Virus record (IMG/VR): IMGVR_UViG_2541047441_000020
DNA length: 5,741 nucleotides
Reading direction: 5' to 3' (one strand)
Source: a virus
Lineage: Duplodnaviria > Heunggongvirae > Uroviricota > Caudoviricetes
Positions 9 to 5,741 of this stretch are shown here, piece by piece (the first letter of the stretch is position 1; the number at the start of each line of letters is the position of its first letter). A model generated the notes under the pieces. That model had not been told where the DNA came from. It was given only the letters and a program-made list of their open reading frames with translations, and ran no database searches. Both the position numbers and the translations under genes were made by a program.

Positions 9-353
9 TTACTTTAATAATTTCAGTGCCTTTACATCCACTTCAACACTGCTCAGGTCTTTATCAATTTCACCCTCAATTCTTACTTTGTCTTTCGGAG
101 AAACATTCTGACCGGCCCATATGCTGTCATCGATATCCGTGACAATTGTCCCGCTATTGTCACGAAACTCATAACGTTCATCACCCACTTTTTTAACGAT
201 GCTCCCTTCAAGGATAACCCATGCATCATCCTTCAGTTCTTTTGCCTGCGCTACTGTTGAACGCTCTGCTTCAGGCCCTTGGAAACCGCCCTGCTGTGCA
301 AAAGCGCCAAAAGACACACCAGAAATAAGTGCTGCAATCAATACCTTTTTCAT
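9..353 (-). CDS. BOF (YgiW/YdeI, OB-fold) family periplasmic stress protein, 114 aa, with N-terminal signal peptide
   Basis: ATG at 353-351 preceded by AGAGGA with 6-nt spacing; TAA at 11-9. The N-terminus MKKVLIAALISGVSFGAFAQ is a typical Sec signal. QGGFQGP, DDxWVxLxG, SGTIxxDID and PKDxVxIxGExDKD match remembered YgiW/YdeI sequence. The family call is from memory. Confidence 0.85.
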   Translation of the reverse strand: MKKVLIAALISGVSFGAFAQQGGFQGPEAERSTVAQAKELKDDAWVILEGSIVKKVGDERYEFRDNSGTIVTDIDDSIWAGQNVSPKDKVRIEGEIDKDLSSVEVDVKALKLLK

Positions 354-472: not shown

Positions 473-628
473 TTACTTCTCAGATTCGTAGTCTACGAAG
501 ACAGCGACCTCCGTCTGGCCGGTTCGGACTCGTACCTCGCAGAGGTCTTTCCTCGTTACCAGTGCCGTCACTATGACGGTTAAACAGATGACGATCAGGG
601 CGATTAACATCGCCTTTTGCTGCTTCAT
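473..628 (-). CDS. hok: Hok/Gef family type I toxin, 51 aa small membrane peptide
   Basis: ATG at 628-626 preceded by AAGGAG with 9-nt spacing; TAA at 475-473. The product MKQQKAMLIALIVICLTVIVTALVTRKDLCEVRVRTGQTEVAVFVDYESEK closely matches remembered HokC/HokD: hydrophobic helix, then RKxLCE, then TGQTEVAVF. Confidence 0.85.
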   Translation of the reverse strand: MKQQKAMLIALIVICLTVIVTALVTRKDLCEVRVRTGQTEVAVFVDYESEK

Positions 629-685
629 AGCCTGCTTCTCCTTGCCTTTCGGCACGTAAGAGGCTAACCTAGATTTGCCGTTCAT
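473..685 (-). CDS. mok: mok-like in-frame upstream reading frame (70 codons) that extends hok at the N-terminus
   Basis: ATG at 685-683 with GAGG 8 nt upstream, in frame with hok. Chromosomal hok loci carry an in-frame mok of about this length. Whether it is translated is inference. Confidence 0.45.
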   Translation of the reverse strand: MNGKSRLASYVPKGKEKQAMKQQKAMLIALIVICLTVIVTALVTRKDLCEVRVRTGQTEVAVFVDYESEK

Positions 686-999: not shown

Positions 1000-2450
1000 T
1001 TAGTTCATTGACATGATAGTTACCTGCCTTCAATTTCCTAAGCAAGCGATGTAAACGATAATCAATATCAAATGTATTGACAGGTAAAATAATAACGATG
1101 TACCTTTGCTGATAACATATATCAGTCTTAAATCATAATGGAGGTAGATAAAATAACTAAACACACACAACAAATTTTTTATCAGTGACATAGCATATCT
1201 TAAGCATCCTTTAATGCTCATGGGGAGAACGCATGACTAAACATATGGACATTCATTGTCAAACACGCATATTTAACTCAATTAACCATGACACCAAATA
1301 TAAAATATGTATTTTTACTCCAAAAAACATTAAAAAAAATAATGCAACTCTTTATATACTTGATGGGAATAGTGCCAACAATTACATTTCTGATATTCTG
1401 CCTGTTATTGATGCACTACCCAATCCACCAGTGTTAGTTACACTTGGTTATGAATCTTGGAATAACCTTAGCATTCATCGCCGTGCTTACGATTATACTC
1501 CTGATGGTGAAAATGCTATTGTTGATAACTCTAAACCAGCATGGATCTACTTTACTGGTGGAGGAAGCCAGTCTTTCCGAGAATTATTACTAACTCAGAT
1601 CATGCCATGGGTTAGTACTATTGCTCCGAACAGTTCCAGAATCGGTATATGGGGACACTCGCTAGGTGCTATTTTTGTGCTTGATTGCTTAAAAAATAAT
1701 TCATGCTTTAACTATTATTATATATCTGCACCATCACTTCTATGGCAGAATGAAAGAATCATCAAGATAATTAAAGATGATATATCAGAATCAAAGCACA
1801 CTAAAAGTATATGCTTGCTTAACGGAAATCTTAGCCTTGATTACTCCGCATCTTTATATCCTGAAGCCATCAAAGCGGAATCTGTTTTGAGAAATATTTT
1901 GACAGAAAAATACAGTAATTTTTCTATTGTACAATTTCCAGAGCTCAATCATCAGGAGACTTTCTCTGCTGCACTCTGGAATAGCATTATTCATTTCAGC
2001 ATATAACAGAAAATATGTAATCACTTTATCAATCTAGCTAACATAACTGATATCAATCCTAATGGGTCTTTGAACATATTAAAAGATAACTTCTCATTTG
2101 TACATTGTTGTGTTCTTAGACCCATTTCAAAAATACTATTTTTTAGATACTAATAATTACATCCATTTAGCTATCTTCTAAATACTCCTCTCAGTTTCTT
2201 CATTGGAGCTGATTCAACTCCGGCAATGCATACTAGGATCATTTTATAAGCATACAAACAACATCCAGACTGTGAATTATTGCTATTCATTTTCTATGTA
2301 TCTGCTCTTTTCCCATCCACTGAAACACCAGAATCCAAAGGTTTCATGTTATTTTCACTATTCCATCATTACTCCTGTGTAAAATATCAAAACTCGCTGC
2401 ATCACTTCACTGTTACGGCACTCACTACAAATTATGTTCAATTGCCTGTC
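1000..2450. other. Low-GC islet (about 30-35% GC against about 50-55% flanking), probable horizontally acquired cargo; boundaries approximate
   Basis: Abrupt compositional shift judged by eye; the right boundary falls within the last ~30 codons of the 2358-2771 gene. No transposase, integrase or clear target-site duplication is visible. Confidence 0.6.
1233..2006 (+). CDS. Alpha/beta-hydrolase of the putative-esterase family (Fes/IroD/IroE siderophore-esterase-like), 257 aa, no signal peptide
   Basis: ATG at 1233 preceded by GGGGAGA; TAA at 2004-2006. GHSLG nucleophile elbow (Ser143), YILDGN (Asp44), RRAYDYTP (Arg84) and a C-terminal His240 in PELNH. Spacings Asp-Arg of 40 and Arg-Ser of 59 match what I recall for IroE (Asp90/Arg130/Ser189/His287); this is memory, not a search. 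The gene is very AT-rich. Confidence 0.75.
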   Translation: MTKHMDIHCQTRIFNSINHDTKYKICIFTPKNIKKNNATLYILDGNSANNYISDILPVIDALPNPPVLVTLGYESWNNLSIHRRAYDYTPDGENAIVDNSKPAWIYFTGGGSQSFRELLLTQIMPWVSTIAPNSSRIGIWGHSLGAIFVLDCLKNNSCFNYYYISAPSLLWQNERIIKIIKDDISESKHTKSICLLNGNLSLDYSASLYPEAIKAESVLRNILTEKYSNFSIVQFPELNHQETFSAALWNSIIHFSI

Positions 2451-2771
2451 ATAGCGGCGTATTTCTCCGTCTGGTAATGACCAGATAAGGTCAGGATCAA
2501 CCACAACCGGTTTCTTCAGTTTTGCCCTCGATAGTTTTTTGCGGGCGTTTTGCCAGTCCTTACGAGCCTGTTCAGATGGGAATAACCCGTAACCAGAGTT
2601 GTATACATCGCCACTGGCAACCAGCTCTCTGGCAAGAACGCTCATCAGATATCTTGTCGCACCTGTCTTGGCTTCCAGTTGCCGTAACGTCTCGCGCCCA
2701 CTCCGGCGTACTAGCTCAACAACCTGCCCTTTAATTTTTTCCCGCTCTTCCTGTGTAAATACTTTTGCCAT
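2358..2771 (-). CDS. Hypothetical prophage protein, 137 aa, with a winged-helix-like motif; function unknown
   Basis: The ORF track starts at TTG 2786, but ATG at 2771-2769 has GGAGG 5 nt upstream, immediately after the stop of the preceding gene (2789-2787). Motif LEAKTGATRYLMSVLARELVASGDVYNSGYGLF recurs in the neighbouring gene. The C-terminal ~28 codons lie in lower-GC DNA. Confidence 0.7.
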   Translation of the reverse strand: MAKVFTQEEREKIKGQVVELVRRSGRETLRQLEAKTGATRYLMSVLARELVASGDVYNSGYGLFPSEQARKDWQNARKKLSRAKLKKPVVVDPDLIWSLPDGEIRRYDRQLNIICSECRNSEVMQRVLIFYTGVMME

Positions 2772-2786
2772 AAGCGCCTCCGGCAA

Positions 2787-3455
2787 TCACTTTTCCGATA
2801 CAACACGGCGGGAAGAATCAGTAATCTGTCGAACAATATCCCGGTGCTTGTTCAGCTCCCGCAGCGCGGCGCAGACTCGCTCCCACTTCTGAACATCACT
2901 TTTCGCCCTGCGCAGCGCCAGGTTTGCCCTGCGAAGGGACGGAAAAATCAGCTCATCTGCTTGCGTTTCGGTAAACGATGGCAACGGCTGCACAATGTCC
3001 GCCACAGTTTCTGTTTTAATTTCTTCCTGTGTTGCGGCTTCCCGGACTGGTAACGCAGCACCTGCTGGCTGAGGAAAGGCCTTACCATCATTTTTCGTTA
3101 CCGGCGCGGCTTTCGGATCTGCTGGTAAATTACCCCCCGACATGCAGTAACGAAATTTACCGTTCTGATTAACGCGTGCCAGCCGCCCCGTTGCGGTTAC
3201 CACCGCCAGCGTGGAAGCAACCTTGCGAGTACTGACGCCGAACTTACCCGCCAGTTCCTCACACGTTTTAGCACCATCCTGACCGATAAACTCAACCATC
3301 ATGTCTGCGGTAACTTTTGGAGCGACCTCTTCGGTTACCACATCCGGCGCTTCAGGTTGTAGTGCCTGCCCTTCGGTTACCCCGGCTTCACCTTCGACAG
3401 CCAGAAACCAGGTGTGACCCGTTTTATCAACAACGCCATTTTTTTGAGTTCCCAC
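2787..3455 (-). CDS. Hypothetical prophage protein with winged-helix-like repeats; this ORF is probably the downstream part of a gene frameshifted at an A7 run
   Basis: 222-codon ORF whose frame opens only 3 codons upstream of its GTG start (3455), with no ribosome-binding site. The first in-frame ATG (codon 52) also lacks one. Contains [57 protein letters not shown]. Confidence 0.7.
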
Positions 3456-3556
3456 AGTTCGTTAAGAACTTCTTCACGGCTGATATCAAGCCGCGCCGCC
3501 AGTTCAACAGAATTGGCTTTTCCCATCGCTTTCAGTGCATGCAATACAGTTTCCAT
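3377..3556 (-). CDS. N-terminal segment (first 36-38 codons) of the same gene, in the -1 frame relative to 2787-3455; authentic start of the frameshifted gene
   Basis: ATG at 3556-3554 with GAGGT 9 nt upstream, directly after the DnaC-like stop (3584-3582). Encodes [39 protein letters not shown] up to the A7 tract (plus-strand T7 at 3439-3445), then stops at TAA 3379-3377. Confidence 0.45.
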
Positions 3557-3581
3557 CGAAAATTTACCTCGTCAAAAATTC

Positions 3582-4322
3582 TCACATACCCTGACGTCCA
3601 ACGTTTGACCGCCAGCTCTCCCAGTTAAAATTCACCCAACGACCACCATTCATGGTCATACGGTCCATCACCCGATCTCCGAGGAGTGTGCTCATCGCTG
3701 CGTGATTCAGGTTCGTCAGCATTCCGACACTACGCATCGAAGCCGTTCTGCGGTCGACTATCTGGTTCAGCGTGACCTGCTCGTTGCGCGTATCCCGCTG
3801 CATGCCAATTTCATCAAGGACCAGAAGGTCAACTCCACAAAGCTCCTGTAAAAATTTTTCCCCGGACTGGCCGTTGTCGTAGCCGTCATGCAACACGCTC
3901 ATGACATCGGACACGGTGACGATAATCACGCTTCTCCCCTTCGCCATCAGCCGATTGCCAATCGCTGCTGCCAGGTGATTTTTACCGGTACCAGGTTTAC
4001 CGCTGAACACGAAGTTTGTACATCCGGTCATCAATTCATCGGCAATGGATTTCGCCTGGCTCAGAGCATGGCGCTGACCGTCGTTCTGCACCCGGTAGTT
4101 CCCGAATGAGCACTTCCTGTGAAGCGGCTGGATGCCCGCACGGTTCAGGATTTTTTCAACCCGCACCTGATGATTCAGGCGGTTAATCTCCTCGCTGCGT
4201 TTTCGTCCTTCAGCAAGTTGCCATTCCCGCCACTCCTCCACCGTCCGGTACGGTGGAACCGCCCCCTGTGGTGCAAGTCTGCGAATACGTTCAAGAACCC
4301 CAACTGCCGCAATGTTTTTCAT
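3582..4322 (-). CDS. DnaC-like replicative helicase loader (AAA+ ATPase), 246 aa, prophage replication protein
   Basis: Walker A SGKPGTGKNHLAAAIG and Walker B LLVLDEIG; near-colinear with remembered E. coli DnaC (IINQIVDRR, GMLTNLN, GDRVMDRM, WVNFNWESWR). ATG at 4322 follows the O-like stop by 6 nt. Matches the ydaV position in Rac-type prophages. Confidence 0.9.
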   Translation of the reverse strand: MKNIAAVGVLERIRRLAPQGAVPPYRTVEEWREWQLAEGRKRSEEINRLNHQVRVEKILNRAGIQPLHRKCSFGNYRVQNDGQRHALSQAKSIADELMTGCTNFVFSGKPGTGKNHLAAAIGNRLMAKGRSVIIVTVSDVMSVLHDGYDNGQSGEKFLQELCGVDLLVLDEIGMQRDTRNEQVTLNQIVDRRTASMRSVGMLTNLNHAAMSTLLGDRVMDRMTMNGGRWVNFNWESWRSNVGRQGM

Positions 4323-4328
4323 GACACG

Positions 4329-5291
4329 TCACCCCCTGAATCCCGGCGGTATTTCAGTGTCCGGTTCAGAAATGTGATTCACGCAACGCTGCGCGGGCGA
4401 ACGCCCCAGGCGGATAACCAGTTCATCCCATTTTTCCCGGAGTTTTGCCGGACTCATGATGTTTTTTACCCAGAACGAATCCCGCTGGAGACGCCCAAAC
4501 ATTTCACAAATTTGTCTGTGAGTTCTGCCATCCAGCATCCGCATTGTCCGCACGTCATTGGCCCATGCAGTCCAGTTGGGTTCTTTCGGTCTCGTGATCT
4601 CGCCATCATCGCTGGCCGCCTGCTCGTAAAGACTCACGATTCGTCCCCAGATCCACTGTGCGCACACCAAATCTTCCTGACTTCCCCACTGGCGTTTTTT
4701 CGCACTGAACACAACCGCGTCAGGGTGTCGGGTTAAAAAATTCTGTTCAGCCGTCTGCGGGTCCGGTTGCGAAGCGTCCGGACAAGAAGATCTTTTATCT
4801 GACGGATCAGGTTTTAATACTGACGGATCGGGGTCAATCATCGCCCCCCTAATCGGCAGTTTGTTATCAACAGTTGATCCATCAAAATTTGACGGGTCAA
4901 CCGTTGAGGGGGCAATATTTGACGGGTCAACTGTTAACGGGTCATTTTTTGCCGGGCTAATTTTTCTTTTCGGTTTATATGACTCACGCGCCGCCGCAGC
5001 AGCTGCTTCGAGTTTTTCCACATTAAGCCGATAGATATTGCTTACATTACGCCCACCGACCTTACGCTCTTCCTTCGTCAGCCAGCCCTCTTTCGCCAGT
5101 TCTGCAATAGCCGATTTCACTGTGGATTCACTTCTTGCACCGATCTGACGCCGGATAGTTTCAATGGCAGGCCATGACACGCCCTCGTCATTGCTGTAGT
5201 CTGCAAGACGGGCCATAACCGCCACCCTGGATAAGATCATGCCGGTGAAGGCGCACCCTTCCCAGACAAGACCATGAAGCTTGCTGCTCAT
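4329..5291 (-). CDS. Phage replication initiator (lambda O-like): N-terminal helix-turn-helix domain, low-complexity linker encoded by iterons, C-terminal domain
   Basis: The ORF track starts at GTG 5306, but ATG at 5291-5289 with GGGGG upstream is the better start. N-terminus (ARLADYSNDEGVSWPAIETIRRQIGARSESTVKSAIAELAKEGWLTKEER...NVSNIYRLN) resembles initiator HTH domains. The linker repeats TVDPSN. It sits directly upstream of the DnaC-like gene. Confidence 0.8.
   Translation of the reverse strand: MSSKLHGLVWEGCAFTGMILSRVAVMARLADYSNDEGVSWPAIETIRRQIGARSESTVKSAIAELAKEGWLTKEERKVGGRNVSNIYRLNVEKLEAAAAAARESYKPKRKISPAKNDPLTVDPSNIAPSTVDPSNFDGSTVDNKLPIRGAMIDPDPSVLKPDPSDKRSSCPDASQPDPQTAEQNFLTRHPDAVVFSAKKRQWGSQEDLVCAQWIWGRIVSLYEQAASDDGEITRPKEPNWTAWANDVRTMRMLDGRTHRQICEMFGRLQRDSFWVKNIMSPAKLREKWDELVIRLGRSPAQRCVNHISEPDTEIPPGFRG
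4799..4944. repeat. Iteron cluster (putative prophage replication origin) inside the O-like gene, flanked by an AT-rich stretch at 4945-4980
   Basis: ctgacggatcagg (4799-4811) and ctgacggatcggg (4820-4832) are 21 bp apart. An exact 13-bp direct repeat tttgacgggtcaa occurs at 4888-4900 and 4918-4930 (30-bp period), with a partial third copy at 4862-4877. Each unit is dyad-symmetric (TTGAC-GG-GTCAA; TCAAC-N-GTTGA). Followed by ttttttgccgggctaatttttcttttcggtttatat. Confidence 0.55.
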
Positions 5292-5313
5292 AAAACCCCC
5301 GAACACCGTGCTT

Positions 5314-5739
5314 TTAGTGCATCACCACAGCATTCCCTGCCGGGCCGCCGCGATTCATCTGGTCATACAAAACAACCGCTGACGCAACAAAATCATCGAC
5401 ATCCTTCACCAGCCGATCCCTCCGTTCGACGATCTCACGGTAATATTCAGAACTGTGGCTGCGCATACGGGCCACCAGCAAAGGCGGCATCGCCTTTTCG
5501 ATCGCCGGTAACAGAGCCTGCATTTTTTCAACAGCATCAGGGGTGTCTTTATCCAGCCAACGGAAAATTTTCTGGGTATTACGGGCCAGGGCTTCCGGAT
5601 GGCTGTCGTCATACAGTTCCGGGAACGTCATTCCCAGCTCGAAATACGCTTTGGTAATTTTCGCAGCCGGTACTTTTTCGCCGTCCGGATGCGCCCAGAC
5701 ATTCATCGCCATGCGGATGTGTTCATGCTTGATTTTCAT
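5314..5739 (-). CDS. YdaT-like prophage protein, 141 aa, function uncertain; its start is 3 nt from the window edge
   Basis: ATG at 5739-5737, TAA at 5316-5314, 22 nt upstream of the O-like start. Its position (unknown gene, then O-like, then DnaC-like) matches ydaT-ydaU-ydaV of Rac-type prophages. The MKIKHEHI N-terminus is consistent with my recollection of YdaT, which is unverified. Confidence 0.7.
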   Translation of the reverse strand: MKIKHEHIRMAMNVWAHPDGEKVPAAKITKAYFELGMTFPELYDDSHPEALARNTQKIFRWLDKDTPDAVEKMQALLPAIEKAMPPLLVARMRSHSSEYYREIVERRDRLVKDVDDFVASAVVLYDQMNRGGPAGNAVVMH

Positions 5740-5741
5740 GA

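Follow-up and report, generated by a model that had tools for sequence, protein, structure and literature searches.

A split DUF1627/YdaW-family gene in a mosaic lambdoid prophage: probable decay through loss of one A from an in-frame A8 tract

Reading frames that are split at a run of A residues have been met in several well-described systems. Sites of -1 frameshifting of the dnaX and IS3 type combine a conserved two-frame arrangement with a slippery heptamer of the form X_XXY_YYZ and a stimulator, either a hairpin or pseudoknot at 5-9 nt on the downstream side or a Shine-Dalgarno-like element on the upstream side, while programmed transcriptional slippage sites have an A/T run of about 9 nt (sometimes 8) and ORFs that are conserved in the out-of-frame state. 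In many bacteria, A/T runs come under evident counter-selection from about 9 nt (Baranov et al. 2005, PMC1088944). The frequency of transcriptional insertions grows exponentially as runs lengthen, and E. coli showed no rescue of pseudogenes by this route (PMC5574713). In the same organism, 1-bp deletions are suppressed in a non-programmed way at about 1% in aggregate (PMC10861913). Finally, pseudogenes frameshifted at A/T homopolymers, among them the "pseudo-pseudogenes" of Salmonella (PMC9122581), may be rescued in part by polymerase or ribosome slippage. The locus analysed here resembles such slippage-rescued pseudogenes in that it likewise involves a 1-bp deletion in an A run, which a -1 slip or an extra transcribed A would correct exactly. 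However, the documented productive cases have runs of 8-9 or more, or heptamers like A_AAA_AAG, whereas here the run is 7 and the heptamer is imperfect.

The locus lies in a 5,741-nt stretch of tailed-phage DNA (IMG/VR record IMGVR_UViG_2541047441_000020), which we refer to in its entirety as the window. Its closest described relatives are of two kinds, both belonging to the DUF1627/YdaW family; the literature on DUF1627 was found to consist of incidental mentions only. First, intact DUF1627 proteins (WP_000450876.1 of O157:H7 PV15-279, WP_021523363.1, and the database proteins P0001 and P0002) are 98-100% identical to the window product apart from the frameshift, and their genes share its synteny, start codon and ribosome-binding site; unlike the window gene, they have A8 or an interrupted 8-base tract and encode one 256-aa chain. 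Second, EDL933_RS12290 and its O157:H7 equivalents are frameshifted DUF1627 pseudogenes with the same A7 as the window gene and only 0-1 nt of difference over 770 nt. The lambdoid prophage that carries EDL933_RS12290 is marked by PaaA2/ParE, and we take it to be CP-933P / Sp12. Its module from YdaT to the O-like and DnaC-like genes is also that of the window, the two being 99.7% identical over window positions 2739-5741. Below about 2738 the two differ, in that the window has an Sp4-like module with a DUF977 gene (137 aa), a low-GC alpha/beta hydrolase gene and hokD.

The window is thus a mosaic. The segment 401-2738 is about 94-95% identical to a Sakai Sp4-type prophage, the junction with the PaaA2/ParE-type segment falls at about 2738/2739, and positions 1-400, which hold a BOF/YgiW-like OB-fold gene (9-353, minus strand), match neither prophage. 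No complete E. coli genome contains the whole window at 99% identity or above; the best match has 93% coverage and 93.7% identity and carries an IS insertion. The genes follow the order of a lambdoid replication module, with a YdaT-like toxin, an O-like HTH_36 protein, a DnaC/IstB-like ATPase, DUF1627 and DUF977, and this order is the same in every related locus examined. The upstream neighbour of the split gene encodes the DnaC/IstB-like helicase-loader ATPase (3582..4322, minus strand; Pfam IstB_IS21, E 1.5e-19), and the downstream neighbour is the DUF977 gene (2358..2771, minus strand; Pfam DUF977, E 3.8e-27), with its own GGAGG and an ATG at 2771. O157:H7-type genomes also carry intact DUF1627 paralogues in other prophages.

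The split gene as a whole occupies 2787..3556 on the minus strand, a length of 770 nt, compared to 771 nt (256 codons plus stop) in intact orthologues. The original prediction, made from the sequence of the window, placed an ATG with a good ribosome-binding site at 3556, and this is borne out by a minus-strand GAGG at 3567..3570, separated from the ATG by a 10-nt spacer and unchanged in intact orthologues. From this ATG (3556-3554), the 59-codon ORF1 (3377..3556, minus strand) begins METVLH and, beyond ELKK, runs into an out-of-frame tail, such that its first 39 residues, which form helices 1-3 of winged helix 1, are authentic and its last 20 are in the wrong frame. The prediction had this frame meeting an A7 run after 36-38 codons and ending 20 codons later, and reading of the sequence agrees on both points: the run (minus strand, 3439..3445, plus-strand T7) makes up codons 38-39 (AAA AAA) and the A of an ATG. 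A second frame, 222 aa in the mechanical ORF listing, extends on the same strand from GTG 3455 to the TGA at 2789-2787, and opens after a TAA that lies two codons upstream of GTG 3455. Its authentic coding part is 2787..3438 (minus strand), which corresponds to ancestral residues 40-256 and encodes the wing of winged helix 1, a linker, winged helix 2, another linker and a C-terminal long helix.

At the tract, the zero frame reads CTC AAA AAA ATG GCG. A -1 shift, in which one A is read again, or one extra A in the mRNA converts this to CTC AAA AAA AAT GGC, that is, LKKNG, as in the orthologues. The direction of the shift by which the 222-codon frame was proposed to be reached is therefore right, as are all of the coordinates given with that proposal. 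The A7 by itself is unremarkable, with 3 A7 matches in the window where 2.8 are expected; the non-random element is the join of two frames into a full-length family member, not the A7.

When one A is added, the two frames join into a conceptual fusion of 256 aa that belongs to the DUF1627/YdaW family (Pfam PF07789, E 7.5e-100, 331.6 bits). A PF07789 score of 331.6-332 bits, against a cut-off of 28.1, is obtained for the fusion and also for the 222-aa frame, so this match is shared by the two. Over residues 3-52, the fusion alone gives weak matches to HTH_11, DeoR and Crp, and the 59-aa ORF alone has no Pfam match; this supports the earlier claim that the first winged-helix motif is complete only in the shifted fusion. 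Across the junction, the fusion matches P0001 with 100% identity (phmmer E 1.3e-160). This protein ranked first among 2240 relatives of the fusion retrieved from 5.8 billion proteins; of the 120 listed, most have a length of 256 aa. Only 173 clusters were matched in a full scan of 1.84 billion cluster representatives, and the DUF1627 family is therefore small. In a phage collection, 29 records were matched, only one of which spans 80% or more of the query, and the matches listed carry the labels hypothetical, YdaW-family or DUF1627.

Relatives of 27-50% identity that are full-length can be aligned with the fusion from residue 1 through about residue 246, and the N-terminal domain is conserved family-wide, down to 19-30% identity. 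In a 38-sequence alignment, L34 and W50 are the two invariant residues of positions 1-55, and the break lies between them. Moreover, codons 1-55 in the fused frame have a dN far below dS (for example, 0.008 vs 0.083-0.18). That the two frames are one gene, as originally proposed, is further supported by the orthologues, which are contiguous ORFs of 249-278 aa with 8 bases at the tract. The family feature of a single ORF of about 250 aa, with an N-terminal winged helix and a DUF1627 region, is broken in the window gene as encoded, at codon 39/40, and is recovered only after one A is added; the locus is therefore best described as a pseudogene member of DUF1627/YdaW.

The number of A residues in orthologues had been suggested as a check, with 6, 7 or 8 as the possible states. 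Intact orthologues carry 8 bases at this position, in the form of A8, AAAAGAAA, AAAGAAAA or AAAATAAA, the last being found in Sp4-type copies. Direct alignment gives A8 in strain 20AR0300 and AAAAGAAA in strain 20.1, both with intact genes of 771 nt, and A7 in Z1323HEC0494. In a census of 113 IMG/VR viral and prophage contigs, which required exact flanks and left 6-10 bases between them free, A8 was found in 78, A7 in 16, AAAAGAAA in 13, AAAGAAAA in 5 and another octamer in 1; none of the 113 contigs had A6, A9 or A10. Among all of the loci compared, every A7 allele is truncated at 59-81 aa, and the 8-base alleles whose frame was read to completion give 249-278 aa, the exceptions being two that give 142 aa and a single non-A octamer that gives 38 aa. 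One contig (L014, GCA_044609145.1) is identical over 1382 nt to window 2796-4176 save for A8, and encodes the intact P0001. A degenerate-pattern scan of one genome per species returned only an E. albertii copy with AAAAGAAA and a chance match in a Dysgonomonas MAG, and so was informative for Escherichia alone. Intact genes are also present in O55:H7 RM12579 and in the sorbitol-fermenting O157 strain 493/89; these copies lie in different mosaic prophages, so that their orthology, and therefore any dating of the deletion, is insecure.

How widespread is the A7 allele? The exact A7 80-mer occurs in 287 of 5426 complete E. coli genomes, and the sampled A7 entries with a serotype label are all O157:H7. 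The A8 form, flanked identically, is present in 164 genomes, O121 and others included. Over its 770 nt, A7 included, the window gene is 100% identical to the copy in the complete genome of Z1323HEC0494 (L002), and it is 1 SNP away from the EDL933-type copy. The NCBI pipeline labels both of these copies, in Z1323HEC0494 and in EDL933 (EDL933_RS12290), as "DUF1627 domain-containing protein, frameshifted". The frameshifted state is thus on record in the annotation of public reference genomes. The exact 59-aa product is found in 1580 blocks of an assembly collection, and the 10 places listed are all prophage contexts.

The consequence of the break for the protein can be approached with a structural model, which was built with AlphaFold2 on P0002 (98% identical), using the 38-sequence alignment. 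The mean pLDDT is 78.8, with values above 90 in the folded parts. Winged helix 1 is modelled with helices at 4-11, 16-23 and 27-39 and strands at 43-46 and 49-52 (pLDDT above 92), and is followed by a disordered linker, winged helix 2 at 84-138, another linker and a long C-terminal helix at 208-254. The H1-(b1)-H2-H3-b2-b3 topology is therefore present twice, at 4-52 and 84-138, with pLDDT above 90, in what is a prediction and not a solved structure. Foldseek comparison with the PDB returned tandem winged-helix proteins (ScpB, ESCRT-II Vps25, SelB and DDRGK1/UFL1) as well as single winged-helix proteins (Z-alpha, MarR/ArsR and FeoC), with a probability of 0.93-1.00 among the 50 matches listed and a target TM-score of up to 0.87 for single domains. 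The folds of ScpB, Vps25, the C-terminal domains of SelB, Z-alpha, MarR/ArsR and FeoC match both N-terminal domains of the model; with identities of 9-23% and E-values of 1e-3 to 1e-2, this is a resemblance of fold only. The label "winged-helix-like" in the original prediction, and its comparison of the first motif with that of domain 2, hold in the model and in these matches.

DUF1627 proteins are thus predicted to consist of tandem winged helices and a C-terminal long helix. This is the only new biological hint for DUF1627, which is encoded directly after the phage helicase-loader gene, and it concerns the family rather than the frameshift. With helix 3 at 27-39 and the wing hairpin at 43-52, the break in the window gene lies precisely where the recognition helix of domain 1 gives way to its wing. 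A separate peculiarity was seen in one relative, P0005 (277 aa, from a 1.3-Mb contig), in which a stretch of about 38 residues, covering the wing of winged helix 2, is duplicated in tandem within the protein.

We consider it likely, with a probability of roughly 85%, that the locus is a DUF1627/YdaW pseudogene that lost one A from an in-frame A8, that the loss is fixed in the O157:H7 lineage, and that the gene is at most slightly leaky. The ancestor was a contiguous 256-codon ORF in which the A8 encoded Lys38-Lys39-Asn40 (AAA AAA AAT), and homopolymer slippage at replication is the likely cause of the loss of the A. The site would then be a deletion hotspot and not a regulatory device. The A7 allele is inherited through the O157:H7 lineage, and is met here in a mosaic prophage. 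Because the deletion falls where the recognition helix of domain 1 ends, translation from the usual start gives a 59-aa peptide without the wing, to which the family-invariant Trp50 belongs, or anything downstream of it. The remaining 650 nt would be essentially untranslated, since no convincing internal start is present, and traces of full-length protein, probably on the order of 1% or less, would arise only by non-programmed -1 ribosomal slippage or by rare transcriptional insertion of an A. Tolerance of such a loss would be explained by the cryptic nature of the prophage and by the intact paralogues that are often present in co-resident prophages.

A point against decay is that the 217 codons beyond the break form an open frame free of damage; this says little, because O157:H7-type copies differ from the window by only 0-3 nt in the gene. 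The broken copy is present in hundreds of O157:H7 genomes and already annotated as frameshifted, and so the locus looks like a case of ordinary gene decay. The original prediction had offered a decaying pseudogene, a homopolymer sequencing error and a slippage-based switch as alternatives: the first is the best supported, the second is opposed by the 287 genomes, and the third found no positive support. What appear to be two small ORFs would accordingly be one dead gene, and would illustrate cleanly how a deletion in a homopolymer can become fixed in the lineage of a pathogen. Within O157:H7 and its relatives, whether the tract is A7 or A8 might be of minor use for marking lineages; the importance of the frameshift finding is otherwise small.

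The allele distribution bears on the proposal that the tract is a contingency (phase-variable) locus, at which replication slippage would toggle between A7 and A8 and thereby turn the winged-helix protein off and on in the population. At least 4 haplotype backgrounds include an A7 allele, and for each there is an A8 twin with zero differences; one of these is 107 nt away from the window allele, and several of the cases are drafts or singletons. In addition, the complete genome of O157:H7 PV15-279 departs from the sampled O157:H7 genomes by having A8, in an orthologous prophage with 99.94% identity over 11 kb, and a further independent A7 is present in a different prophage of the complete genome 2014C-3338. 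The occurrence of A7 on several backgrounds makes the run a hotspot either of deletion or of miscalls. The A7/A8 instability fits a replication-slippage hotspot, and miscalls in drafts and singletons could explain part of it. A switch would nonetheless have to be reconciled with the near-uniformity of A7 among sampled O157:H7 genomes, the opposite of rapid switching, and with the occurrence of only two lengths, 7 and 8. Furthermore, the run is interrupted by G or T in many orthologues in which the ORF is kept, and it is absent from the distant relatives in the 38-sequence alignment. Eight A is short for such a switch in mismatch-repair-proficient E. coli, and the gene also decays by many other routes, which fits neutrality. 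Considering these points, we regard phase variation as improbable.

A more elaborate version of this idea is slightly harder still to credit. Here the A8/A7 run would act reversibly as an ON/OFF switch, or be leaky by design, and would thereby control how much is made of a tandem winged-helix protein whose gene adjoins those for prophage replication; O157:H7 would be locked largely in the OFF state, from which strains like PV15-279 have occasionally reverted to ON, and prophage replication, induction or interference among co-resident lambdoid prophages would depend on the state.

Could the two frames be joined by programmed recoding, with -1 ribosomal frameshifting or transcriptional slippage on A7 yielding a set ratio of 59-aa and 256-aa products? 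Lysine-encoding A runs are slippery, and re-pairing of the P-site tRNA-Lys from AAA to the overlapping AAA would be perfect and would give LKKNG. Non-programmed suppression of 1-bp deletions in E. coli can exceed the value of about 1% at A_AAA_AAG (PMC10861913), and this general level of suppression makes trace full-length protein from the A7 allele plausible. Several points speak against a programmed event: the split arrangement is not conserved, the orthologues for which the full sequence was read are in frame, and the flanks are identical in in-frame A8 alleles, so that they have not been selected for shifting. The zero-frame heptamer, C_AAA_AAA followed by ATG, does not conform to X_XXY_YYZ, and only the single P-site re-pairing is perfect. 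No stimulatory structure is found at 5-9 nt; the RNA that follows the tract is no more stably folded than shuffled sequences (z -0.77), and about 20 nt separate the tract from the start of the main hairpin in this RNA. The only upstream Shine-Dalgarno-like candidate is a GGGA located 4 nt from the A run, which is not dnaX-type spacing. None of the three attributes of the dnaX and IS3-type sites is therefore present. With regard to transcription, a run of 7 is below productive slippage lengths (PMC1088944; PMC5574713). Programmed recoding of either kind is, in our judgement, very unlikely.

About equally unlikely is an error of sequencing or assembly, in which case the sampled DNA would truly have A8 and an intact gene. 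Homopolymers are a classic site of miscalls, and the L014 contig is A8 even though it is identical over 1382 nt; the singleton A7 alleles on other backgrounds, which come from draft contigs or from one complete assembly (2014C-3338), could be miscalls as well. The allele in the window, however, is the one found in a complete genome (L002) without a single difference across the gene, and is 1 SNP from the allele that the examined O157:H7 genomes carry. Given that the 287 complete genomes with the exact A7 80-mer come from many laboratories, that the NCBI label reads frameshifted, and that the 59-aa product recurs in 1580 blocks, an error in the window is improbable. Random miscalls would also be expected in both directions, and neither A9 nor A6 was seen in the 113 contigs.

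One assembly (L012, GCA_051590825.1) has A7 together with further frame breaks nearby, in which the O-like, DUF551 and Q genes are split. It looks homopolymer-error-prone, and calls for caution in counting independent A7 events.

Least probable of all is that ORF1 and an internally initiated protein of 171-222 aa (from GTG 3455, GTG 3341 or ATG 3302, with winged helix 2 and the C-terminal helix) are two functional genes: automatic gene callers do predict ORFs of this kind, and ATG 3302 immediately precedes domain 2, a part that the model folds with confidence, but a Shine-Dalgarno sequence is absent at all three starts, the callers disagree on the start (222, 184 or 171 aa), no orthologue family begins at any of them, the short database fragments being heterogeneous truncations, and no promoter-like or terminator-like internal site was found in 2300-3800.

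Several other features of the family and of the window were recorded. Short N-terminal family fragments (P0194, P0203, P0228, P0238, P0250 and others) break at different points: P0194 has another frameshift, after DK, P0203 is an A7 allele with a different tail, and the rest are deletions or recombination junctions. Inactivation of the DUF1627 gene in prophages therefore takes several forms. Two other relatives, P0034 (403 aa) and P0080 (372 aa), contain both the DUF1627 and the DUF977 Pfam domains, and the adjacent genes are therefore fused in some contigs, possibly through loss of the stop codon or a frameshift.

At the other end of the window, a complete hok/sok type I toxin-antitoxin locus occupies 473-797 on the minus strand. 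It comprises a Hok/Gef ORF (473-685, minus strand; Pfam E 5.2e-22) and the sok antisense RNA (623-797; Rfam RF01794, 105.6 bits against a gathering score of 59), and sok was the only Rfam match in the window. Next to this locus is a low-GC island at 801-2400, with 31-37% GC compared to about 50-55% around it. On the opposite strand, 1233-2006 (plus) holds a 257-aa alpha/beta-hydrolase-like gene with a weak Pfam Esterase match only; the exact protein is found in 11661 collection blocks, and the gene includes an in-frame A8 at 1332-1339.
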